From: an uncultured Chromatiales bacterium
GTDB taxonomy: Bacteria > Pseudomonadota > Gammaproteobacteria > SZUA-140
DNA: 64,000 bases
Assembly (NCBI GenBank): GCA_964581365.1
Contig: CAZOOF010000002.1
Coordinates: forward strand, 9,826 to 73,825
Direction of reading: 5' to 3'
Part shown: piece by piece, positions 1 through 45,746 of the stretch
Layout: every line of letters begins with the position of its first letter
Position numbering within the stretch: the first letter of the stretch is position 1
The notes under the pieces: generated by a model
What the model was told of the DNA's origin: nothing
What the model saw: only the letters and a program-made list of their open reading frames with translations
Database searches by the model: none
Made by a program: the position numbers and the translations under genes

Positions 1-1
1 C

Positions 2-148
2 GCGGCGGCAAGCCAGGCTCAGGACGATAGCGGCGACGATGCTTTCCCCGAAGGCTCGCAGCTCTGCACCAAGTGCCAGACCAAGGCGATGATCCGCATG
101 GACAACTGCCTGACCTGTCTGAATTGCGGCGAATCCAAGTGCGGCTGA
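2..148 (+). CDS. 3' end of an upstream gene running off the window edge. The Cys-rich tail (…LCTKCQTKAMIRMDNCLTCLNCGESKCG*) resembles the CxxC…CxxC zinc-ribbon C-terminus of ribonucleotide reductases, possibly class II/NrdJ-like.
   Basis: Frame 2 is open from the window edge to TGA at 146-148. Two CxxC pairs sit 14 residues apart. The family assignment is from memory of RNR C-termini and was not verified. Confidence 0.35.
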   Translation, partial: AAASQAQDDSGDDAFPEGSQLCTKCQTKAMIRMDNCLTCLNCGESKCG

Positions 149-245
149 CCCGGCAGCAGCGGGAGGCTCGGATCACCGCACGCAATTCATTGAAATTGGT
201 CGAGCTTTCCGCCGCTATCAGAACATTTTCTTTGCGCCGCGAGCC

Positions 246-262
246 GCTGCTATAATCGGTTC
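246..262 (+). promoter_or_regulatory. Extended -10 promoter (TGcTATAAT at 248-256) upstream of the small ORF. The -35 element is weak.
   Basis: Perfect TATAAT hexamer with a TG at -15/-14, in a locally AT-richer pocket. A GAGG RBS sits about 8 nt before the ATG at 293. Confidence 0.3.
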
Positions 263-292
263 AGTCTCAATCTCGAGAGAGAGGGGCAATAT

Positions 293-526
293 ATGGCAGT
301 CAAGCAGAAGCCGGTAGTTGGTAACTGGTACATGAACGTGGCTGGCCAGTTGATCAAAGTCTGGGCACTCGGATATTCCTCGGGCCTACTGTCCCACGTA
401 GTCCTCGAACACCTCAACGGCAAGCGCAAGATCATCAGTTCCGCCGATTGGTGGTCCCTGGATCTCGAAGCACACCTCTATCGGGCCGCGCGCCGGCGCC
501 GGGACGGTGAGGGCGTTCATCGCTGA
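293..526 (+). CDS. Hypothetical small protein (77 aa).
   Basis: ORF preceded by an extended -10 promoter and a GAGG RBS. Codon usage is protein-like. I recognise no family. Confidence 0.4.
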   Translation: MAVKQKPVVGNWYMNVAGQLIKVWALGYSSGLLSHVVLEHLNGKRKIISSADWWSLDLEAHLYRAARRRRDGEGVHR

Positions 527-532
527 GTCGCC

Positions 533-557
533 TTTCCGGGGCATGATGCCCCGGAAG
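533..557. other. GC-rich hairpin (ccggggc-atgat-gccccgg) between the small ORF and the convergent regA. Possible bidirectional terminator, though no U-run is present.
   Basis: A 7-10 bp inverted repeat read directly from the sequence. It lies between the convergent gene ends at 526 and 609. Confidence 0.3.
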
Positions 558-608
558 CGCGCCAGCGCAAACTGCTCGGCAGACACCCGCGCTCAGGATG
601 GGCCTGTT

Positions 609-1139
609 TCATCGCCTGACCGGCCTCTTCTGCAGCTTCCGCTGCAGGGTGCGACGATGCATACCCAGACGCTGCGCCGTCTGTGAAATATTGCCCCCGC
701 ATTCCATCAGCACCTTCTGAATGTGTTCCCATTCGAGCCGGTTCACGGACATCGGCTGAGGCTCGGTGCTGACACCGGGATCCCCTTCTTTACGATCGAA
801 GGCCGCAATGATGTCGTCGGTCTGCACCGGCTTGGTGAGATAATAGGTTGCTCCCAGCTTCACCGCCTCCACCGCGGTGGCGATACTGGCGTACCCCGTC
901 AGCACCACGATGCGGGCCTGCGGGCGGGCCGCTGCCAGACGTGACACGAGGGTGAGACCGGACGGTCCAGGCAGACAGAGATCGATGACGGCGAAATCAG
1001 GCGGATCTTCGCTGACGAGGGTCCACGCGCTTTCCACGTCTTCCGCCGTCTGAACCTGATAGCCTCTGCGCGTCAATGCCTTGGCGAGCACATCGCGGAA
1101 CACGGCATCATCATCGACCAGCAGCAGTTTCGCTTCCAT
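609..1139 (-). CDS. regA: Response regulator RegA/PrrA/ActR (redox-responsive, Fis-type HTH).
   Basis: N-terminal receiver domain (LLLVDDD…) and C-terminal HTH 'NISQTAQRLGMHRRTLQRKL', which is the hallmark RegA/PrrA helix. An alternative start is M at 1160. The gene overlaps the 3' end of regB. Confidence 0.85.
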   Translation of the reverse strand: MEAKLLLVDDDAVFRDVLAKALTRRGYQVQTAEDVESAWTLVSEDPPDFAVIDLCLPGPSGLTLVSRLAAARPQARIVVLTGYASIATAVEAVKLGATYYLTKPVQTDDIIAAFDRKEGDPGVSTEPQPMSVNRLEWEHIQKVLMECGGNISQTAQRLGMHRRTLQRKLQKRPVRR

Positions 1140-2493
1140 CTCCACCTCCCTCGGGAGCATCCTTGTCCTCGTGCACCAGCAGTTGCGTCAAGGGAAGCGT
1201 CAACCAGGTGCATGCCCCTCCTTCTTCGCGATTGAACAACAGCATCTCCCCACCCAGGCGATCGACCACCGAATAGGCGAGATACAGGCCCAGCCCCAGG
1301 CCTTCGCCCGGAGGCTTGGTAGAGAAAACCCGCTTGCCCGCCGCAGACAGCGCAGCCGGCGCCAGGCCGGTTCCGTGGTCACAGACCTCAAGCGTCAGGC
1401 GCTCCCAGTCCCAGCGTGCCTTGAACTCGATGCGCTCAGGGGAAGCATCCGCGGCATTGTTGAGGATGCTGATGATCGCTTGGCTCAGGGTCTGTTCAGC
1501 CACGATCACCGGTGCAGGCCGGTCTCCCGCGAGATCGACCCGCACCTTGGTCGCTGGCCGCAGAGTGCGCCAACGCTCGATGACATCCCTGAGATAATCG
1601 TCGACGGAAAGGCGGTGACCCGATGCCGCCTGACTCTGGCCGGCAGACAGGGAAAGCATGGCGAGAGTGTGCTTGCAACGACTGACCTGTTCGCGCAGCA
1701 CGCGGAGACGCTCCTGGAGAACCTGGTCGTCCTCATGATCCAGACCGAGCTCCTCGGCGATCAGTGCGATAGTCCCCAGCGGAGTTCCCAGCTCATGGGC
1801 GGCGCCGGCCGCAAGTGCGCCCAGGGCTACGATGCGCTCATCTCGCAGCGCCCGCTGCTTGGTTTCCGACAGCAGGCGATCGCGCTCGCGCAGGGTACTG
1901 CCCATCTTCGCCACGAAGGCTACTATCATGCCTGCGCTCAAGACGAACCCCAGCCACATTCCCGTGACATGGAGCTCGAAGTCATGGACGCCATGGTCAT
2001 GCGCCGGAATCGGCAGTGGCACATAGCGAAACAGCAGGAGGGTGTAACAGGCGATGATCGCAACCGCGATCACCCAGCTGTAGATACCGGGAAGCAGCGC
2101 CGCGGACACGATAAGCGGCAGAAGCAGCAGCAGCGTCAGAGGATTGGTGGATCCGCCGCTGAGATAGAGCAGCAGCCCAAGCATCGCCACATCGAGCAGC
2201 AACTGGAGAACGAAGACGCGGTCTCCGATGTCCTCCCGATCGCGCAGCCAGGCCCAAGAAACCAGGCTGAAAAGGCACCAGAAGGCAAGCAGCGCCGACA
2301 TGGTGACGAACGGCAGCTCGATACCCAGCCGCCAGCCGACGAACAACAAAGCCAGCACCCAGCCGGTCACCGCACCGGCCCTCAGCAACAGCAGCCGCTG
2401 CAGATTCAAGGCAGACAGTGAGCCAAGGGCGGACGCCGGGCGATCACTGACACGATGTGGAAACAAACTTTTTCCCCGATGCGGCGAATTCAT
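1111..2493 (-). CDS. regB: Sensor histidine kinase RegB/PrrB/ActS (membrane redox sensor).
   Basis: 460 aa with multiple N-terminal TM helices. It has the GGxxNPL quinone-binding-type motif (SGGSTNPLTLL), the H-box 'AAHELGTPLGTIALI', and an HATPase C-terminus. It is co-oriented with and overlaps regA. Confidence 0.85.
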   Translation of the reverse strand: MNSPHRGKSLFPHRVSDRPASALGSLSALNLQRLLLLRAGAVTGWVLALLFVGWRLGIELPFVTMSALLAFWCLFSLVSWAWLRDREDIGDRVFVLQLLLDVAMLGLLLYLSGGSTNPLTLLLLLPLIVSAALLPGIYSWVIAVAIIACYTLLLFRYVPLPIPAHDHGVHDFELHVTGMWLGFVLSAGMIVAFVAKMGSTLRERDRLLSETKQRALRDERIVALGALAAGAAHELGTPLGTIALIAEELGLDHEDDQVLQERLRVLREQVSRCKHTLAMLSLSAGQSQAASGHRLSVDDYLRDVIERWRTLRPATKVRVDLAGDRPAPVIVAEQTLSQAIISILNNAADASPERIEFKARWDWERLTLEVCDHGTGLAPAALSAAGKRVFSTKPPGEGLGLGLYLAYSVVDRLGGEMLLFNREEGGACTWLTLPLTQLLVHEDKDAPEGGGDGSETAAGR

Positions 2494-2504
2494 TAATGAT
2501 AATT

Positions 2505-2535
2505 ATTTACATTCAGGGGCCGCGATGGCTATACT
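2505..2535 (+). promoter_or_regulatory. Sigma70-like promoter (TTTACA-N19-TATACT) driving a short + strand transcript.
   Basis: Hexamers read from the sequence. The 19-nt spacer is on the long side. It sits in the regB-rubredoxin intergenic region. Confidence 0.3.
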
Positions 2536-2542
2536 TTGATCA

Positions 2543-2606
2543 TCACGCGTCCCCCTCCCTCCTCAACGCGTGTATCTTGGAGCGCAGCTGCGCTCCTTTT
2601 TTTTTT
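2543..2606 (+). ncRNA. Candidate small RNA of about 65 nt: a 7-bp stem (cACGCGU/ACGCGUg) with a 15-nt loop (CCCCCUCCCUCCUCA), followed by an intrinsic terminator.
   Basis: A promoter upstream and a canonical terminator downstream define a short transcript with no ORF. Both the rubredoxin gene and regB are on the minus strand, so this + strand terminator serves neither. Confidence 0.35.
2579..2606 (+). terminator. Rho-independent terminator: 9-bp perfect palindromic stem GGAGCGCAG/CTGCGCTCC followed by T10.
   Basis: Perfect GC-rich hairpin immediately followed by ten T residues on the + strand only. On the minus strand it is preceded by an A-run, so it is unidirectional. Confidence 0.65.
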
Positions 2607-2649
2607 ATCTTTTTGCGAGTTACTTTGCGAGCCGGCAGCAGATGCCCGA

Positions 2650-2814
2650 TCAGACTTCGATCATCTCGAAGTCATCGCGCGAAGCACCGCACTCCGGACA
2701 GCGCCAGGTCAGCGGCACATCTTCCCAACGGGTACCGGGGGCAATACCGTGCTCAGGCAAACCCGCTGCTTCGTCATAGATGAAGCCGCAGATCACGCAC
2801 ATGTACTTCCTCAT
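2650..2814 (-). CDS. Rubredoxin (54 aa).
   Basis: [15 protein letters not shown]…[17 protein letters not shown] has two CxxCG knuckles and the classic rubredoxin fold signature. An AGGA RBS precedes the ATG. Confidence 0.9.
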
Positions 2815-3013
2815 AGATCCTGTTTCGTCCATAACTGGATGGCGAGGCAGATGCAATGTAACACAGCAACGATGCTAGAATGAACCGCAATCGGGCGCAT
2901 TCGCGTCCACTGCAAGCACTGATCTCCAAGCCGACGACGCCTTGAAACAGCAACGCCAACCCCGCGACTGCCGACCGAATGGCGGCGAATCACCAAACGC
3001 GGTTCCCACCGTC

Positions 3014-3793
3014 ATGGCGATATCCGGACTCGATCCGAGCGGCGGCGCCGGCATTCAGGCCGATATCGAGGCGCTGGCCAGCATGGGCTGTCACACGGCC
3101 CCGCTGGTTACCGCACTGACCGTACAGAACACACGTCAGGCGAGCGGCTATGTCGCCACCGACGCCGCGCTGCTCGAGCGCCAGATGCGCGCAGTCTGCG
3201 CCGACATGACGGTGGCCGCGTGCAAGATCGGCATGATCGGCAGCGCCGCGGTCGCGACGGCGGCGGCACGCGTGCTGACCGAACACACCGACATACCGGT
3301 GGTGCTCGATCCGGTTCTGGCAGCAGGCGGCGGAGGTTCGCTCGCGGACGAAACGACGAGTCGCGCGATATTACGCGAACTGCTGCCGCTGGCCACGGTG
3401 GTGACACCGAATACGGTCGAAGCGCGACAGCTTGCCCCTGCGGCCACCACTCTCGAAGACTGCGCGCTGGCGCTGCTCGATGGCGGAGCCGAGTACGTGC
3501 TCCTCACCGGCAGCCATGAAGAAACCGAACAGGTGGTCAACTCCTTATATGGAGATGGCCGGCTGCTCGAATCCTGGTCCTGGGAACGGCTGCCCGGCGG
3601 CTATCACGGATCCGGCTGCACGCTGGCTGCGGCAATTGCCGGACTTCTCGCCAGCGGATCGCTCCCAGAGGAAGCGATCAGGCAGGCCCAGGAATACACC
3701 TGGGAAAGCCTGCGCCAGGCCTATTCCATCGGCTCCGGTCAGCGGATCCCCAACCGTTTCTTCTGGGCGCACGAGCGGGAAGGACGCCGATGA
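3014..3793 (+). CDS. thiD: Hydroxymethylpyrimidine/phosphomethylpyrimidine kinase ThiD.
   Basis: MAISGLDPSGGAGIQADI…TPN…GSGCTL are ThiD/PdxK-family motifs. The stop overlaps the thiE start (ATGA). Confidence 0.85.
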   Translation: MAISGLDPSGGAGIQADIEALASMGCHTAPLVTALTVQNTRQASGYVATDAALLERQMRAVCADMTVAACKIGMIGSAAVATAAARVLTEHTDIPVVLDPVLAAGGGGSLADETTSRAILRELLPLATVVTPNTVEARQLAPAATTLEDCALALLDGGAEYVLLTGSHEETEQVVNSLYGDGRLLESWSWERLPGGYHGSGCTLAAAIAGLLASGSLPEEAIRQAQEYTWESLRQAYSIGSGQRIPNRFFWAHEREGRR

Positions 3794-4458
3794 ACCGGTA
3801 TGCTATCCGCGGACTTTATGTCATCGCCGATACCGGGGTGATTCCCGACGGCAGACTCACCGAGCATGTGCGCCTGGCCGTCCGCGGCGGAGCTCAGATC
3901 GTTCAGTATCGCAACAAGCGCGCGCGCAGCGATAAGCTGATGCGCGAGCTGCAGGAGCTGCGGGAACTGTGCCGTGCCTGCCAGGTTCCGTTGCTGATCA
4001 ACGATGATGTGGCGCTTGCTCTGACCATCGATGCCGATGGCGTCCATCTCGGCCGCGATGATGGCAGCGTGGCAGCCGCCCGCTCGCTGCTGGGGAAAAC
4101 CAGGCTGATCGGCGCCTCCTGTTATAATGACCTCGCTCTGGCCAACCAGGCGCGTGCAGAAGGGGCGGATTATGTCGCCTTCGGCAGTTTCAATGCCTCA
4201 CCGACCAAACCGGACGCCGTGAAGGCGAGTCCCATGCTGCTGGTCCGGGCGCGCAGGGAGCTCGATCTGCCGATCGTCGCCATCGGCGGCATCACTCCCG
4301 AGAATGGCACCCTGCTGATCGAAGCCGGCGCCGATGCGCTAGCGGTGATCAGCGGTGTTTTTGCTCAACCCGACATCGCGACCGCCGCCGCGCGCTACAG
4401 CCGCCTGTTCGAACCCGCCGCCGATGAGGCGGAACCACTTCAGGAAGATCTGACATGA
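3790..4458 (+). CDS. thiE: Thiamine-phosphate synthase ThiE.
   Basis: 222 aa matching the ThiE TIM-barrel pattern (YVIAD…VQYRNK…INDD…VHLG…IAIGGI). It is translationally coupled to thiD and hemL. Confidence 0.85.
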
Positions 4459-5735
4459 CGCAATCGCACTCCATGTTCAAGAACGCCCAACGGGTCATCC
4501 CCGGCGGAGTCAACTCACCGGTACGCGCCTTCCACGGCGTCGGCGGTGAGCCGGTATTCATCCGCCGCGGCGCCGGCGCGCAGCTGTTCGATGTCGACGA
4601 CAAGGCTTACGTCGATTACGTCGGATCCTGGGGCGCAGCCGTCCTCGGGCATGCGCATCCGGCCGTAGTGGCGGCAGTAAAGCGCGCGGTGGAGGACGGA
4701 CTCGGCTTCGGCGCGCCGACGGAGATCGAGACCCGCATGGCCGAAACCCTGTGCCGCCTGGTGCCCTCACTGGAGATGGTGCGCATGGTGAATTCGGGCA
4801 CTGAAGCCACCATGAGCGCGATCCGCCTCGCGCGCGCGCATACCGGACGCGACAAAATCCTTAAGTTCGAGGGTTGCTATCACGGTCATGGGGATTCGCT
4901 GCTGGTCAAGGCCGGATCCGGTGCTCTGACCCTGGGCGTGCCGAGTTCACCGGGGGTGCCACTCGCGCTCGCGGAGCACACCATCACCGTTCCGTACAAT
5001 GATCTGGAAAGAGTGGAAGAGGTGTTCGCGCGCATCGGAGGGCAGATCGCGTGCATCATCGTGGAACCGGTCGCGGGCAACATGAACTGCATCCTGCCCA
5101 AGGAAGGCTTCCTCGCCGGCCTGCGCCGGCTGTGCGATCAGTACGAGTCGGTACTGATCTTCGACGAGGTGATGACCGGCTTTCGTGTCGCACTGGGTGG
5201 CGCACAGCAGCGCTTCGGCATCCGCCCTGACCTGACCACGCTCGGCAAGGTAATCGGCGGTGGCATGCCGGTGGGCGCCTTCGGCGGCAAGCGGGAAATC
5301 ATGGAAAAACTGGCGCCGCTCGGCGGCGTGTATCAGGCCGGCACGCTCTCCGGCAACCCGGTGGCGATGGCTGCCGGACTGGCCACGCTGCAGGAAGTGG
5401 AGAAGGGAGACTTCTATCAGGAGCTGGCGGCAACCACCAAGCGCATCGCCGACGGCCTGGTAACGCGCGCGAAGGCGTTCAATGTACCGCTGGTCGTCAA
5501 CCACGTGGGCGGCATGTTCGGGCTGTTCTTCACCGAGCAACAGACCGTGGACAGCTTCAACGCGGTCACCCGTTGTGACCTCGATCGCTTCCGTCTGTTT
5601 TTCCACGGCATGCTGACGCAGGGCGTGTATCTTGCGCCGTCCGCGTATGAAGCCTGCTTCGTCTCTGCGGCGCACGGCCAGGCCGAGATCAAGCAGACCC
5701 TGATCGCGGCAGAGCAGGTCTTCTCGCAGTTGTGA
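4455..5735 (+). CDS. hemL: Glutamate-1-semialdehyde 2,1-aminomutase HemL.
   Basis: 426 aa. N-terminus …[14 protein letters not shown]… and a class-III aminotransferase PLP-lysine region (TLGKVIGGG). Confidence 0.9.
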
Positions 5736-5778
5736 TCGCGCCGTAACACAGATCCCGCGCAGGCAGGCAATCGGGAGT

Positions 5779-6825
5779 TTGGTAATGAAGTACAGCCAGC
5801 TCGGAACCACCGGCGTCCAGGTAAGCCGTATCTGCCTGGGCACGATGACCTTCGGCGAACAGAATACCGAAGCGGAGGCCCATGCCCAGTTCGATGCCGC
5901 GTTCGATGCAGGCATCAACTTCATCGACACGGCGGAAATGTATCCGGTTCCGCCGAAGGCGGAGACCTACGGTGACACCGAGCGCTATATCGGCAGCTGG
6001 CTGCGCCGCAGCGGACGCCGGGATCGCGTGATCCTCGCCACCAAGGTGATGGGGCCTTCCGAAGATCTGCGTTACGTGCGTGACGGATCGACCCGGCTCG
6101 ACCGCCGCAACATCGAAGCCGCGATCGATGCCAGCCTGGAGCGCCTTGGCACCGACTACATCGACCTCTATCAGCTTCACTGGCCGGACCGCCGCAGCAA
6201 CTTCTTCGGCAAGCTGGGTTACGTGCACGATCCGCAGGACGACCCGATCCCGCTGGAGGAAACGCTGGCTGCGCTGGGACGCCTGGTGGAAGCGGGCAAG
6301 GTGCGTTTCATCGGCGTTTCCAATGAAACACCCTGGGGCGTAATGCGCTACCTGCAACTCGCCGCCGAGCGCGGTCTACCGCGCATCGTCAGCATCCAGA
6401 ACCCGTACAATCTGCTCAATCGCAGCTTCGAAGTCGGCCTGGCCGAGATCGCGCACCGCGAATCGGTCGGCCTGCTGGCGTATTCCCCGCTCGGCTTCGG
6501 CGTGCTCAGCGGCAAGTACCTCGATGGCCAGCGTCCCGAGGGCGCGCGCCTGAGCCGCTTCCAGCGTTTCCAACGCTATACCAAGGAAGCCGCGCAGGAT
6601 TCGATCCGCGCCTACGTGGAAGCCGCGCGCAAGCATGGCCTCGATCCCGCGCAAATGGCGCTGGCCTACGTGAATACTCGCTCATTCCTTACCAGCACTA
6701 TCATCGGCGCAACTGATCTGCAGCAGCTCGCCGCCAACATCGCCAGCATCGATGTGGAATTGCCGGAGGAAGTGCTGGCTGAGATCGAAGCCGTTCATCT
6801 GCGCCACCCCAATCCGTGCCCCTGA
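5779..6825 (+). CDS. tas: NADP(H)-dependent aldo/keto reductase (Tas-like).
   Basis: 348 aa. ICLGTMTFG…IDTAEMYP…LYQLHWPD…IGVSNE… are AKR-family motifs. Length and N-terminus resemble E. coli Tas. Confidence 0.8.
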   Translation: MVMKYSQLGTTGVQVSRICLGTMTFGEQNTEAEAHAQFDAAFDAGINFIDTAEMYPVPPKAETYGDTERYIGSWLRRSGRRDRVILATKVMGPSEDLRYVRDGSTRLDRRNIEAAIDASLERLGTDYIDLYQLHWPDRRSNFFGKLGYVHDPQDDPIPLEETLAALGRLVEAGKVRFIGVSNETPWGVMRYLQLAAERGLPRIVSIQNPYNLLNRSFEVGLAEIAHRESVGLLAYSPLGFGVLSGKYLDGQRPEGARLSRFQRFQRYTKEAAQDSIRAYVEAARKHGLDPAQMALAYVNTRSFLTSTIIGATDLQQLAANIASIDVELPEEVLAEIEAVHLRHPNPCP

Positions 6826-29565: not shown

Positions 29566-29823
29566 ATGAGCACTCGCGCGTTTGCTGCCATGCTACCCCT
29601 CCTCGCACCGTCGCTGGCGGTCGCGGAGCTTGAGCTGCCGCCGGAAAACGCTCGCCCGCTGTCGGAAATCGTGGAAGCAGTAGAGAGCCAGGGCTTCGTT
29701 CCTTTCGAGCTGGAGTTCGAAGACGGTCGCTGGGAAATCACGGCATTTCGGGAAGGCAAGCCGGTGAGGTTGTACGCTGATCCGCGCAGCGGCGGCATTT
29801 CCGAGCGGGACAGCCGCCGCTGA
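29566..29823 (+). CDS. PepSY-domain small periplasmic protein.
   Basis: Signal peptide, then the …EIVEAVESQGFVPFELEFEDGRWEITAFREGKPVRLYADPRSG PepSY pattern. Confidence 0.6.
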   Translation: MSTRAFAAMLPLLAPSLAVAELELPPENARPLSEIVEAVESQGFVPFELEFEDGRWEITAFREGKPVRLYADPRSGGISERDSRR

Positions 29824-33427: not shown

Positions 33428-33540
33428 GGGTCTCCTATCGGCACTTACGAGCGAGGATATGAATGACGTGATGCGAGTAAACCAGCGTAACCCTTTGCTT
33501 GCATCGGTCGATATCTTGGGCAACCCACCGGATTCATGAC

Positions 33541-34404
33541 ATGCCTTCGCTTATTCTTATAGTTATTCTGCTGGCGCTGTCTTCTCTTGCTTCAGCCGGA
33601 GATCGCGCTCCGGAGTACGTCGGAGACCGCGAATGCAGCTATTGCCACAAGCTGGAAGCGCGTCAGCACGCGAACAGCGATCACGGCCGCCTGGTCAGCG
33701 GACGCGTCGGCGAAGCTCGCAGTTGTGAAGCTTGCCACGGCCCGGGCAGCCGCCATATCACCGTAGTGGGTGACCCCTTGTACCGCGGACCGCTGCATAT
33801 CCGCACCGGCGCGGACCTGAAACGCGATCCGGAAGCCACATGCCTGGCCTGCCACGAGAACGGCTCGCGACTGCACTGGCATGTCAGCGCCCATGCGGCA
33901 TCCGATCTCGGCTGCACGAGCTGCCACAGCATACATGATTCCGGCAAGACCACCGACTGCGGCGCCTGCCACCGTCGCGAGAGTACCCGATTGCAGCGCT
34001 CCGCACACATGCCGGTGCGGGAAGGATCCATGCAGTGTGCCGACTGCCACGACCCTCACGGCGGCGACGGACCAGCGGCGCTGCGTGCGGGATCGGTCAA
34101 CGAGATCTGTCATCGCTGTCATGCTGACAAGCGTGGCCCCATGCTGTTTGAACATCTTCCGGTACGGGAGGACTGCACGCTGTGCCATGACCCCCATGGA
34201 TCCAGCCATCGCAGCATGCTGGTCCGGAAACCGCCGACGCTGTGTCAGCAGTGCCATATGCTCGGCGGACATCCGAGCTGGCTTTACGATAGCGCCGAGC
34301 TCGCCAACGCCGATATCAGCCAGTACGGCGCGCGGAACTGTCTGAACTGTCATTCACGAATCCACGGCTCCAATCATCCCTCGGGATCACGGTTTCAGCG
34401 CTGA
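33541..34404 (+). CDS. mtoA: Decaheme c-type cytochrome of the MtrA/DmsE/MtoA/PioA family (periplasmic component of a porin-cytochrome conduit).
   Basis: Signal peptide MPSLILIVILLALSSLASA, then exactly ten CxxCH motifs in about 260 residues (CSYCH, CEACH, CLACH, CTSCH, CGACH, CADCH, CHRCH, CTLCH, CQQCH, CLNCH). The stop overlaps the start of the downstream barrel gene (TGATG). Confidence 0.85.
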   Translation: MPSLILIVILLALSSLASAGDRAPEYVGDRECSYCHKLEARQHANSDHGRLVSGRVGEARSCEACHGPGSRHITVVGDPLYRGPLHIRTGADLKRDPEATCLACHENGSRLHWHVSAHAASDLGCTSCHSIHDSGKTTDCGACHRRESTRLQRSAHMPVREGSMQCADCHDPHGGDGPAALRAGSVNEICHRCHADKRGPMLFEHLPVREDCTLCHDPHGSSHRSMLVRKPPTLCQQCHMLGGHPSWLYDSAELANADISQYGARNCLNCHSRIHGSNHPSGSRFQR

Positions 34405-36614
34405 TGCAGCCCGGGTTTCCACCACTCATCCTTCATCCCTTCCGGCGCCGGCGGCTTCGCCTGGCGATCGGCGCCATGCTTCTGTGCGCTGACGCGGCTG
34501 CGGCCGTACAGCTGAGCGGCCTGATCGAAATCGGCGGACTGTATCTCACCGACGAACGCTCCGGCGCGCAGGGCTCATACGGTCCGGCGATTCATCAGGG
34601 AATACATCCGCTCGGCAGCCTCGATCTGAGTGTCGATGGCGAGGGCAGTCGGACCCGCATCCAGGGATCCATGACCAGCCCGGACTTTGGAGACTTCGGC
34701 GTCACGCTGCTCGCGAAGGATGGCGATAGCGTCCGCCTCGACTACCAGCGAATGGCTCGCCGGGGAGACGACGGACTTTCATTATTGCAGAGCGGCGCAG
34801 ACATTCTGACCCTGCCCCCAGGCTTCGTGCCCGCGAACACGACTCAGGATTTCGATCTGAGTGTCCTGCAACCGGTGGAGCTCGGTACCAACCGGGAGCG
34901 CTATGGGATTGCGGCGCGTCTGTTTGCGGGAAACGACTGGAGAACGGATGTCTCGGTACGCGAGGAACGGCGCCGCGGGGTGCAGGAAATCGGTGCAATG
35001 GTTGGCGTCGATCCGCTCGAGGCGCGCTCCATCATTCTTCCCGCACCCGTGGATCAGCAGTTGCGTGAGCTGGATGCCGCCCTGTCCTGGGAGCGGGACG
35101 GCCGTCAGTTGCGCATTGCGTATCGCGGATCTCTGTTCACCAACCAGCACCAGGCGCATCGCTGGGAGGTACCCTTCCTGGCTGCAGGCGACGATCCGCT
35201 TCCCGATACCGGTCGGCTCGGCACATCGCCGGACAATCATCATCACAGCATTTCCATCGATGCGGGCACCCGTCTCGGCAAGACGTCCCGTCTTAGTGCG
35301 AGCGCCAGCCTGTCGCGCATGCAGCAGGATGAGGACCTCCTCCCATACTCGACCGGCGCATCGCTCACGGCGCTGCCGCGCAACTCGGCCGAGGCCCGTG
35401 TCGATGTGCTTCGCCTGGCGCTGAACGCAAGTGCCCGCCCCCTGGATCGGCTGACACTGAGCGCCCGCCACCGCTACTACCGCAGCGACGACCGTATACC
35501 GCGGACCCGCTTCGAGCCCGTGCTTGCCGATACCATAGCGGGTCGCGCCACCATCAGCCGGCCCTACGACCACTTTCAGGCCAAAACACTTGTGCGGGCA
35601 GTGTATCGGGCAGCGACCGGATCGCGGATCCTGACGGAATGGACCCATGACATCGTCGGCCGCGATCTCCCTGGCAATGGGGGACACACCCGTGAAAACG
35701 GTCTGAAACTTGGTCTGCAACAGACGATCACGAGCCGGGCTCGTGCCCGCCTGTCCTTGCTGCATGCCGATCGCAACCGGCACGGACACGACGCCGTAAT
35801 CATCGACCCCACTGCTGCGGCCTCCTGTCCTGAAATAGTACTGGTGGATCCGGATCCCGATGGCGGAGCGCCGCGGGAGATCGATCGTTGCATCGGACAG
35901 CATCCGGATATGAGGCGGTTCATGCTGGGCGACCGCATCCGCCAGCGGCTCCAGACCGCAATCGACTGGTGGCCAACGGACGATGTGGATTTCGAACTGG
36001 GCTGGAGCATCAGCCGGGATCGGTACCGCGATCAAGCGGTATTCGACGATACTGTCTTCGGTCTGAGGGACAGCCGGGAAAGGATGCTGTACACCAACCT
36101 CAATTGGTCAGCACATGAATCATGGTCGATCAGCATTGCTTATTCCCGCGAGTATCTCGATGCGGCGCAGACCGGGCGGGACATGGCGCATGACCAGCCG
36201 TCAGCGCCGATCGACTCCAGCACCAACTGGCGGGCCCGCTCACATGACCGCGCCGATACCATCAGCGCGGGCCTTCGTCTCGACCTCCCCGACGGACGCA
36301 CCCGCCTGGCGCTGGATCTGGCTCACATTCGCGAACGCAATCGAATCCGGCTCGAAAGCCGCCTGCCTGCAGCCCAGCTTCCCGATGATGGCGCCAGGCG
36401 GCAGTACGCAGAGCTTCATGGAGAGCACGAGCCCGATGACCGGATCCTGCTGAAGGCGGGAGTGCGCTGGGAAGCGGTCATGGCGACCGACCGCAGCGAC
36501 AGTGGCATCGAAGTCGGAGAGATGCCCGGATTGAACGGAGTGCTGGCCTTGCGCAGTGGTGACACCGACTACGATGTCCTGCTGATCTGGAGTTCGATCA
36601 CATACCTTTGGTAG
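34404..36614 (+). CDS. mtoB: MtrB/MtoB/PioB-family outer-membrane beta-barrel porin partner of the decaheme cytochrome.
   Basis: 736 aa. N-terminal signal peptide, amphipathic beta-strand periodicity throughout, and a C-terminal …SITYLW aromatic terminus. Translationally coupled to mtoA. Size matches MtrB/PioB. Confidence 0.75.
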   Translation: MQPGFPPLILHPFRRRRLRLAIGAMLLCADAAAAVQLSGLIEIGGLYLTDERSGAQGSYGPAIHQGIHPLGSLDLSVDGEGSRTRIQGSMTSPDFGDFGVTLLAKDGDSVRLDYQRMARRGDDGLSLLQSGADILTLPPGFVPANTTQDFDLSVLQPVELGTNRERYGIAARLFAGNDWRTDVSVREERRRGVQEIGAMVGVDPLEARSIILPAPVDQQLRELDAALSWERDGRQLRIAYRGSLFTNQHQAHRWEVPFLAAGDDPLPDTGRLGTSPDNHHHSISIDAGTRLGKTSRLSASASLSRMQQDEDLLPYSTGASLTALPRNSAEARVDVLRLALNASARPLDRLTLSARHRYYRSDDRIPRTRFEPVLADTIAGRATISRPYDHFQAKTLVRAVYRAATGSRILTEWTHDIVGRDLPGNGGHTRENGLKLGLQQTITSRARARLSLLHADRNRHGHDAVIIDPTAAASCPEIVLVDPDPDGGAPREIDRCIGQHPDMRRFMLGDRIRQRLQTAIDWWPTDDVDFELGWSISRDRYRDQAVFDDTVFGLRDSRERMLYTNLNWSAHESWSISIAYSREYLDAAQTGRDMAHDQPSAPIDSSTNWRARSHDRADTISAGLRLDLPDGRTRLALDLAHIRERNRIRLESRLPAAQLPDDGARRQYAELHGEHEPDDRILLKAGVRWEAVMATDRSDSGIEVGEMPGLNGVLALRSGDTDYDVLLIWSSITYLW

Positions 36615-45315: not shown

Positions 45316-45359
45316 GACCGCGGTTTCACAGCGTGACCCGCATGCGGTAAGATCGCCGC

Positions 45360-45746
45360 ATGGATGTAAGGACCAGCAGAAACGGCGGCTCCCGGCTGGC
45401 GCTCGCAGGAGCGCTGCTGTCATTTTTTCTCGCGCCGGCGGCACAGGCCGAGTGCATCGTGGTCACCGCCAGCGATTATCAGGCCGGCAGCGCTGACATG
45501 GGAGTGACGCCGGTCGAGTGGCTGGCGGAACTGAGCAACGAATGCCCGGCGAGCTACGACGCAGACCTGGAGATCGCCTTTGTCGATGAAGGCGGCAACA
45601 CGATATACAAGGTGAGCGAGCTGGTCACGGTGCCGCGCCATGGCAACACCACGGCACAACGGGAAATTTATATTCCCGCGCCCGATTTCGAGCGGATTCA
45701 CGACCTGCAGGTGAAGATCCTCGCGGAGCGCGAACGGCCGTTCTAG
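45360..45746 (+). CDS. Hypothetical secreted protein (128 aa).
   Basis: Signal peptide …LAPAAQA. No family recognised. Confidence 0.5.
   Translation: MDVRTSRNGGSRLALAGALLSFFLAPAAQAECIVVTASDYQAGSADMGVTPVEWLAELSNECPASYDADLEIAFVDEGGNTIYKVSELVTVPRHGNTTAQREIYIPAPDFERIHDLQVKILAERERPF

Follow-up and report, generated by a model that had tools for sequence, protein, structure and literature searches.

A probable small RNA gene with an anti-Shine-Dalgarno-like loop and a Fur-like operator, conserved between rubredoxin and regB in uncultured Gammaproteobacteria

The spacer between the rubredoxin and regB genes of an uncultured Chromatiales bacterium very probably harbors a small RNA (sRNA) gene on the plus strand. 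We observe directly the sequence parts of such a gene, their computed fold, their selective conservation, and the lack of an ORF. Our preferred reading is that the element encodes a trans-acting sRNA that would block translation and whose promoter would be repressed by a Fur-family regulator; we assign this reading as a whole a probability of about 0.55. The stretch of DNA analyzed, referred to below as the window, comprises 64,000 nt and corresponds to positions 9,826-73,825 of the forward strand of contig CAZOOF010000002.1 (GCA_964581365.1). The features discussed are collected in Table 1.

Table 1. Features of the rubredoxin-regB spacer and its neighbor genes (window coordinates)
Feature	Position	Strand	Sequence or composition	Remark
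rubredoxin-regB spacer	2440-2650			between two minus-strand genes
regB	1111-2493 or 1111-2466	-		shorter form with alternative TTG start
rubredoxin	2650-2802	-		stop at 2650; called as 50 aa
inverted repeat	2460-2476		GGAAAC-N5-(G/T)TTTCC; GGAAACAAACTTTTTCC in the window	center ~-74 from predicted start
Fur-box-like operator	2492-2510		ATTAATGATAATTATTTAC	over and just upstream of -35; 14/19
7-1-7 core	2497-2511		TGATAATTATTTACA	overlaps -35
-35 hexamer	2506-2511	+	TTTACA	consensus scan
-10 hexamer	2530-2535	+	TATACT	consensus scan
predicted sRNA transcript	2542-2606	+	~65 nt	covariance-model matches, fold
hairpin 1	2544-2572	+	CACGCGU (2544-2550) with ACGCGUG (2566-2572)	7-bp stem
hairpin 1 loop	2551-2565	+	CCCCCUCCCUCCUCA	15 nt, C/U-rich
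loop core	2557-2564	+	CCCUCCUC	complement of GAGGAGGG; predicted unpaired in all folds
linker	2573-2578	+	UAUCUU	U/A-rich
intrinsic terminator	2579-2606	+	GGAGCGC (2579-2585), AGCU, GCGCUCC (2590-2596), T10 (2597-2606)

Architecture of the predicted transcript

The initial annotation had placed a promoter, a hairpin with a 15-nt loop, and a terminator in this spacer, and a sequence scan combined with folding recovers all of them at those positions; the promoter spacer, which had been given as 19 nt, is 18 nt long. The sigma-70-like promoter agrees with the consensus at 10 of 12 positions, is the best promoter-like site of window positions 1-6000 in a consensus scan, and has the near-consensus hexamers 16-18 nt apart that are expected of a sigma-70 promoter. 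The terminator is the best terminator-like site of the same interval. Its 7-bp stem contains six G-C pairs and closes a 4-nt loop, and this GC-rich stem-loop is followed by a U-run on the transcribed strand, as in a Rho-independent terminator. We set the start of the sRNA at A2542, 7 nt after the -10 hexamer, and its 3' end within the U-run. The resulting 65-nt RNA folds into two hairpins with a free energy of -22.8 kcal/mol (z = -6.0), and none of 200 shuffled sequences is equally stable. The minus-strand RNA of the spacer has no unusual stability (z = -0.73).

On the minus strand, the palindromic terminator stem has A10 before it and AAGAUAC after it, and for this reason does not make a proper terminator when read that way. 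Both flanking genes are encoded on the minus strand, and the U-run is kept solely on the plus-strand side of the stem, which bears out the earlier claim that the terminator belongs to neither neighbor. An Hfq-type sRNA 3' module consists of a terminator hairpin, a U-tail of at least 7 nt, and a U-rich stretch just upstream; the succession of UAUCUU, terminator hairpin, and U10 has this composition, as judged by sequence alone.

Neither an ATG nor an ORF preceded by a Shine-Dalgarno (SD) sequence lies within the transcript (2542-2606). A small peptide was considered as the product and rejected: there is no ATG, and the sole GTG-started frame crosses the terminator and is not conserved. A leader or attenuator of thiD-thiE-hemL was rejected as well, as thiD lies 340 nt further, beyond the antisense rubredoxin gene, and has a conserved promoter-like sequence of its own. 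In the rubredoxin/thiD interval (~2840-2890), the sequences TGCTAGAATGAAC and GCTACATTGCA are conserved and common to the homologues, and they probably mark divergent promoters. No TPP riboswitch or any other Rfam match was found upstream of thiD-thiE in the 64 kb.

Under loose criteria, the window contains three promoter-then-terminator units against 0.4 expected, and at least one such unit occurs in 10 of 40 resampled sequences. The sRNA unit surpasses the other two, and a chance origin is only moderately excluded within one genome. The covariance model described below detects no second sRNA copy in the window. Another promoter-like site (9/12), at 45325-45416 on the plus strand, is followed by a terminator-like hairpin within 45 nt; it overlaps the start of ORF 45360-45746 and is probably the promoter region of that ORF.

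Conservation in homologous loci

Relatives were found through homologues of RegB, on contigs from other samples and MAGs; a scan of the genome collection returned a single close relative only. Together they provide ten distinct versions of the sRNA (the window, L007, L090, L092, L093, L094, L096, L098, L100, and L102). The unit is present in the rubredoxin-regB spacer of every locus whose RegB is at least 57% identical (57-100%), and a covariance model based on eight of these versions scores 66-82 bits with exactly one copy per homologous locus. The same model finds no copy in 80 metagenome loci with more distant regB genes (RegB at most 53% identical), nor in L103, where RegB is 52% identical and rubredoxin is missing. 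The sRNA family ends where the rubredoxin-regB synteny ends. We take the conservation in ten distinct homologous loci as the decisive evidence against chance.

The surrounding gene order, hemL-thiE-thiD / rubredoxin-regB-regA / orf77-TSCPD-class II RNR, is kept among the homologous loci. The 77-aa ORF (293-526, plus strand) is itself conserved, has no Pfam match and a strong conserved SD (GAGAGAGGGA), and invariably has regA on one side and the TSCPD/class II ribonucleotide reductase genes on the other. At the right end of L098 and L100, the class II ribonucleotide reductase carries one to two inteins with LAGLIDADG endonuclease domains, and these proteins reach 1158 and 1533 aa versus 717 aa elsewhere.

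Conservation across the unit is selective. Mean pairwise identity among the ten versions is 0.91 for the -35 hexamer, 0.83 for the operator core, and 0.74 for the -10 hexamer; it is 1.00 for the arms of hairpin 1 and for the right arm of the terminator, and 0.95 for the U-run. The diverging segments are the promoter spacer (0.49), the linker (0.43), the terminator loop (0.43), and the 40 nt downstream (0.29). The -35 hexamer is TTTACA or TTTGCA in every version, and the -10 hexamer always has the form TAnnnT (TATACT, TATGAT, TATCAT, TATAAT, TATTAT, TAGACT, TACAAT, or TACACT). The spacing between them is 17-18 nt in all ten despite the diverged sequence. The CACGCG/CGCGTG arms of hairpin 1 are invariant. 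Its loop varies between 13 and 19 nt, which speaks for an RNA hairpin rather than a DNA site of fixed spacing, and yet the core CCCUCCUC is kept in 10/10 versions despite indels around it. The core is also predicted to be unpaired in all folds, and the comparison supports the description of this loop as single-stranded, C/U-rich, and anti-SD-like. The linker is 4-8 nt long with variable sequence, the U-run measures 7-10 in all versions, and the same two-hairpin fold is obtained for each version (z between -4.7 and -8.1). The sister-clade version is ~90 nt long versus ~63-65 nt elsewhere; in L098, L100, and L102 the 5' end is extended by ~23 nt, and this extension holds a further unpaired C-run, CACCCCCCC or CACCCCCUC.

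Hexamers at fixed spacing around a freely drifting spacer, a one-sided U-run, and a flexible loop with a fixed core argue for an sRNA gene rather than a protein-binding site or a signal of a neighbor gene, and agree with the initial annotation in its view of an independent plus-strand gene without an ORF. That annotation had also looked to covariation across related genomes. Conservation was found in the ten versions, but covariation is thin: it is confined to two basal pairs of the terminator (G-C to A-U and C-G to A-U), with the seven inner pairs invariant, and the count is uninformative on hairpin 1, where the arms do not vary. As both stems are almost invariant and covariation is minimal, support for the structure comes mostly from thermodynamics and architecture. 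For these comparisons the terminator was realigned separately, as both the MAFFT and the covariance-model alignments misplace its left arm. The invariance of CACGCG/CGCGTG hints at a constraint beyond the mechanism proposed here.

Three independently assembled contigs of different runs end 0-9 nt from the end of the U-run (L003 at position 1, L005 at position 10, and L006 at position 9), and L001 has T7 in place of T10. These contig ends probably reflect a homopolymer assembly break or length variation and not the end of a transcript.

A Fur-like operator over the -35 hexamer

The classical Fur box consensus is GATAATGATAATCATTATC (PMC3788343). The window sequence ATTAATGATAATTATTTAC agrees with it at 14 of 19 positions, the best match in the 64 kb; matches of at least 14/19 arise somewhere in 18% of resampled 64-kb sequences, and the single-genome statistic is weak for that reason. 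The core TGATAATTATTTACA has two mismatches to the 7-1-7 form TGATAATNATTATCA and is again the best in the 64 kb, where 0.38 hits are expected at up to three mismatches. In each sRNA-bearing locus, the sole Fur match of at least 14/19 lies at the same position over the -35 hexamer, with 15/19 in the L092 box (TATAATGAGAATCATTTGC); as a sequence match, then, the Fur-like box overlaps the sRNA promoter in all ten versions.

The distance from this box to the start of regB is 0 nt in the window clade, ~50 nt in L092, and ~130 nt in the L098 clade, and its register with the -35 hexamer is fixed. We therefore attribute the box to the sRNA promoter. The initial annotation had named a circumstance that would undo the sRNA reading, namely an unconserved element that is merely the leader of regB; the element is conserved, and the AT-rich box follows the sRNA promoter and not the regB start. 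A conserved Fur-like operator over the -35 hexamer speaks for iron rather than redox control. We slightly favor repression of this promoter by a member of the Fur family, given the match; sequence does not by itself separate Fur from its paralogues, and an AT-rich UP-like element or another regulator could also be the cause of the conservation. Within the window, no second intergenic Fur-like box was found for calibration of the motif, and no fur gene was found among the small proteins. A distant regB, that of L056, is preceded by a 16/19 Fur match, which was set aside; the locus belongs to an unrelated low-GC organism and has no sRNA-like element.

The start of regB is ambiguous. The ATG at 2493 lacks an SD and lies inside the Fur-like box, and the TTG at 2466 is preceded by GGGGA and is the start used by public annotations of RegB homologues (451 aa). 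If regB starts at TTG 2466, the Fur-like box is wholly intergenic. Further upstream of the sRNA, exactly 30 nt separate the end of the inverted repeat from the -35 hexamer in nine of the ten versions; L092 lacks the repeat. It overlaps the alternative TTG start of regB in the window clade and is non-coding in L098, L100, and L102. The repeat could be a transcription-factor site or a hairpin of the regB 5' UTR, and it is uncertain whether it is part of the sRNA unit.

Proposed mechanism and predicted targets

The transcription of the sRNA, its regulator, its chaperone, and its targets are what we infer from these parts, as follows. Transcription would start from the sigma-70 promoter at 2506-2535, where the operator for a Fur-family metalloregulator overlaps the -35 hexamer. 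When iron is sufficient, the regulator would occupy the operator and block transcription, and under iron limitation the sRNA would be produced. Hairpin 1 would then expose its unpaired C/U-rich loop, in which the core CCCUCCUC may mimic the 3' end of 16S rRNA. The loop would pair with GGAGG-type SD regions of mRNAs elsewhere in the genome, and such pairing would block 30S binding and lower both translation and mRNA stability. The terminator hairpin, the long U-tail, and the U-rich linker would serve as a typical Hfq-type 3' module. That the sRNA acts through pairing of the loop with SD sequences seems to us reasonably probable; GAGGAGGG, the complement of the loop core, is an extended SD sequence.

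The search for targets covered the 64 kb, with 62 start regions in the window, and the small homologous loci. Prediction of targets for the C-rich loop had been suggested in the initial annotation. The best pairing among the 62 start regions falls on the ribosome-binding site of regA (GAGGGAGG with CCUCCCUC, a perfect 8 bp at -25 kcal/mol). This pairing is not conserved in the homologues, because the SD of regA is not G-rich in several of them (L093, L098, and L100). No convincing or conserved pairing was seen at the starts of rubredoxin, regB, or the MtoA-like decaheme cytochrome, and no neighboring gene emerged as a conserved target among the start regions of the 64 kb and the homologous loci. 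Next to regA, L094 and L096 carry a cytochrome c gene whose SD (GGAGGGGGA and GAGGAGGG, respectively) pairs well in those two loci only; the window lacks this gene. On the minus strand, a perfect GAGGAGGGG at 29604 was discarded, since it is antisense inside a real plus-strand gene.

Alternative explanations

The spacer could hold no RNA gene at all. In that case, its conserved blocks would be DNA signals of the neighbors (a 3' hairpin or terminator of rubredoxin, an operator or promoter of regB, an AT-rich UP-like element), and the plus-strand promoter would be a coincidence. Stems that are invariant in sequence instead of covarying, a palindromic terminator stem, and an AT-rich block that adjoins the regB start in the window clade would all fit. 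However, hexamers held 17-18 nt apart over a diverged spacer are hard to explain without a plus-strand promoter, and conservation of the U-run is limited to the 3' side of the stem on that strand. The spacing of the CACGCG arms, at 13-19 nt, is unlike that of a dimeric protein site, the AT-rich box tracks the sRNA promoter and not the regB start, and the minus-strand RNA has the unremarkable stability noted above. We regard this explanation as very improbable. The sRNA could instead act in cis. It is perfectly complementary to the rubredoxin-regB intercistronic RNA and to the 3' end of rubredoxin, and as an antisense to read-through RNA from rubredoxin into regBA it might lower rubredoxin, an iron protein, and/or RegBA by cleavage or transcriptional interference. 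On its rubredoxin side the hairpin is followed by AAGAUAC and not by a U-run; termination of rubredoxin should therefore leak, and read-through into regBA is plausible. No conserved promoter in the regB direction was detected in the homologues, although consensus scans can miss one and a minus-strand candidate, TAGCCA-18-AATAAT, exists in the window. In L098, L100, and L102 the hairpin directly adjoins the stop codon of rubredoxin, and the 3' end of the rubredoxin mRNA must therefore overlap the sRNA terminator. These three points make cis-antisense action a live, non-exclusive alternative; it is compatible with Fur control, and trans action could coexist with it. A purely antisense RNA, however, needs no exposed and invariant anti-SD loop, and as the main mode of action we consider it unlikely.

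The initial annotation had favored a redox-linked riboregulator, in which RegA, or another redox regulator acting through the inverted repeat near -74, would control the sRNA, and the sRNA would act on regA, regB, or their regulon. The rubredoxin-regB-regA linkage in 10/10 versions, the fixed distance of GGAAAC-N5-GTTTCC from the -35 hexamer in 9/10, and the rank of the regA ribosome-binding site as the top predicted pairing in the window speak for it. On the other hand, scans of the promoter surroundings with the published RegA, PrrA, and RegR motifs (PMC5506826) detect none of them in the window, nor in most homologues, the inverted repeat is unlike published RegA-type sites (PMC5506826), the regA pairing is not conserved, and the sequence conserved over the -35 hexamer is itself Fur-like. 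The proposed link to redox control and RegBA was accordingly not upheld. The conserved linkage to regBA may be synteny only, and we think a redox-linked riboregulator doubtful. The RegA/RegR-like sequence GCGACAT(A/T)TCGCCGC occurs solely in L098 and L102, nearer regB. There, the published motifs of RegA (R. capsulatus) and RegR (B. japonicum) are matched by GCGACATATCGCCGC and GCGACATTTCGCCGC, which lie upstream of regB at ~2425-2440 (L098) and ~2430-2445 (L102) in locus coordinates and are 65-73 nt away from the Fur-like core, toward regB; a box of this type is absent from the window clade and may serve regBA autoregulation. A combined scheme, in which a Fur-controlled sRNA is hard-wired to rubredoxin-regBA and couples iron status to RegBA, as a cis-antisense RNA and in some lineages also in trans on the regA ribosome-binding site, appears improbable to us. 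If true, iron limitation would directly retune global redox signaling in a lineage with MtoAB/PioAB-type extracellular electron-transfer genes.

Relation to known small RNAs

A trans-acting, Fur-repressed sRNA of the kind we favor would most likely be a functional analogue, and not a homologue, of RyhB, PrrF, FsrA, and IsrR. No Rfam 15 family matches the window or eight homologous loci at the gathering threshold. The best sub-threshold scores are those of AniS (20.8 bits versus 50), TarB (18.6 versus 80), and sX12 (20.9 versus 106), and RyhB, PrrF, ArrF, and NrrF give no Rfam match even at E values up to 10. AniS (Neisseria, RF02274) and sX12 (Xanthomonas, RF02231) have the same general shape, in which a hairpin and a terminator accompany a C/U-rich single strand; at these scores the similarity comes mostly from the terminator, and the element belongs to neither family.

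IsrR and FsrA are Fur-repressed, iron-sparing sRNAs with C-rich regions directed against SD sequences, and among Fur-repressed sRNAs only FsrA is noted as binding the SD via a C-rich motif (PMC9410917). By type of seed, the element is nearest to IsrR of Staphylococcus and FsrA of Bacillus subtilis, which it resembles in its predicted Fur box at the promoter, C-rich single strand suited to SD sequences, and Rho-independent terminator, and the two C-runs of the L098, L100, and L102 versions recall the several C-rich regions of IsrR. Unlike the present element, these two RNAs are from Firmicutes, and they have neither sequence nor synteny in common with it; IsrR is 174 nt long with three C-rich regions, and here there is one such hairpin in ~65 nt. 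RyhB, PrrF1-2, ArrF, and NrrF are closer in host, being from Proteobacteria. Their regulatory logic is the one predicted for the present element, in which a Fur operator covers the promoter and the RNA is small, ends in a terminator, and probably has an Hfq-type 3' end. However, simple anti-SD C-runs do not serve as their seeds (PMC9410917), and their genomic context is different.

A hairpin loop with a CCUCC-type anti-SD motif is also found in the alphaproteobacterial cuckoo RNAs (CcsR / RSs0680 / alpha-r14), which are defined as two to four adjacent hairpins, each with CCUCCUCCC, on highly variable stems (PMC4615179). In contrast, the element described here has a single C-rich hairpin with the core CCCUCCUC, invariant stems, and a gammaproteobacterial host. 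The exact 9-mer CCUCCUCCC is absent from all ten versions, which places the element outside the cuckoo definition.

RsaE/RoxS of Firmicutes is a C-rich sRNA under the control of a redox-sensing two-component system, with C-rich motifs that target SD sequences. It is the known case nearest to the redox reading; it has no homology to the present element, for which control by RegBA is unsupported by motifs.

Implications

The element probably constitutes a new sRNA family of a familiar kind in uncultured Gammaproteobacteria, with no new kind of mechanism. If confirmed, it would add a new Rfam sRNA family from a clade known only from metagenomes. Iron and redox chemistry appear to sustain the host clade. 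The window encodes a multihaem cytochrome of the MtoA/PioA/MtrA type with ~10 CxxCH motifs (33499-34404, plus strand), directly followed by an MtrB/PioB outer-membrane porin (34404-36614, plus strand; Pfam PF11854, E = 2e-82), and this pair suggests an extracellular electron-transfer or iron-oxidation module and an iron-centered lifestyle. With its compact architecture, the sRNA comes with a ready-made mutational series in the form of ten natural variants. If confirmed, it would represent another independent invention of a Fur-repressed, iron-sparing sRNA, one that uses the anti-SD C-run solution hitherto seen mainly in Firmicutes (FsrA, IsrR) instead of the RyhB/PrrF-type seeds of Proteobacteria.
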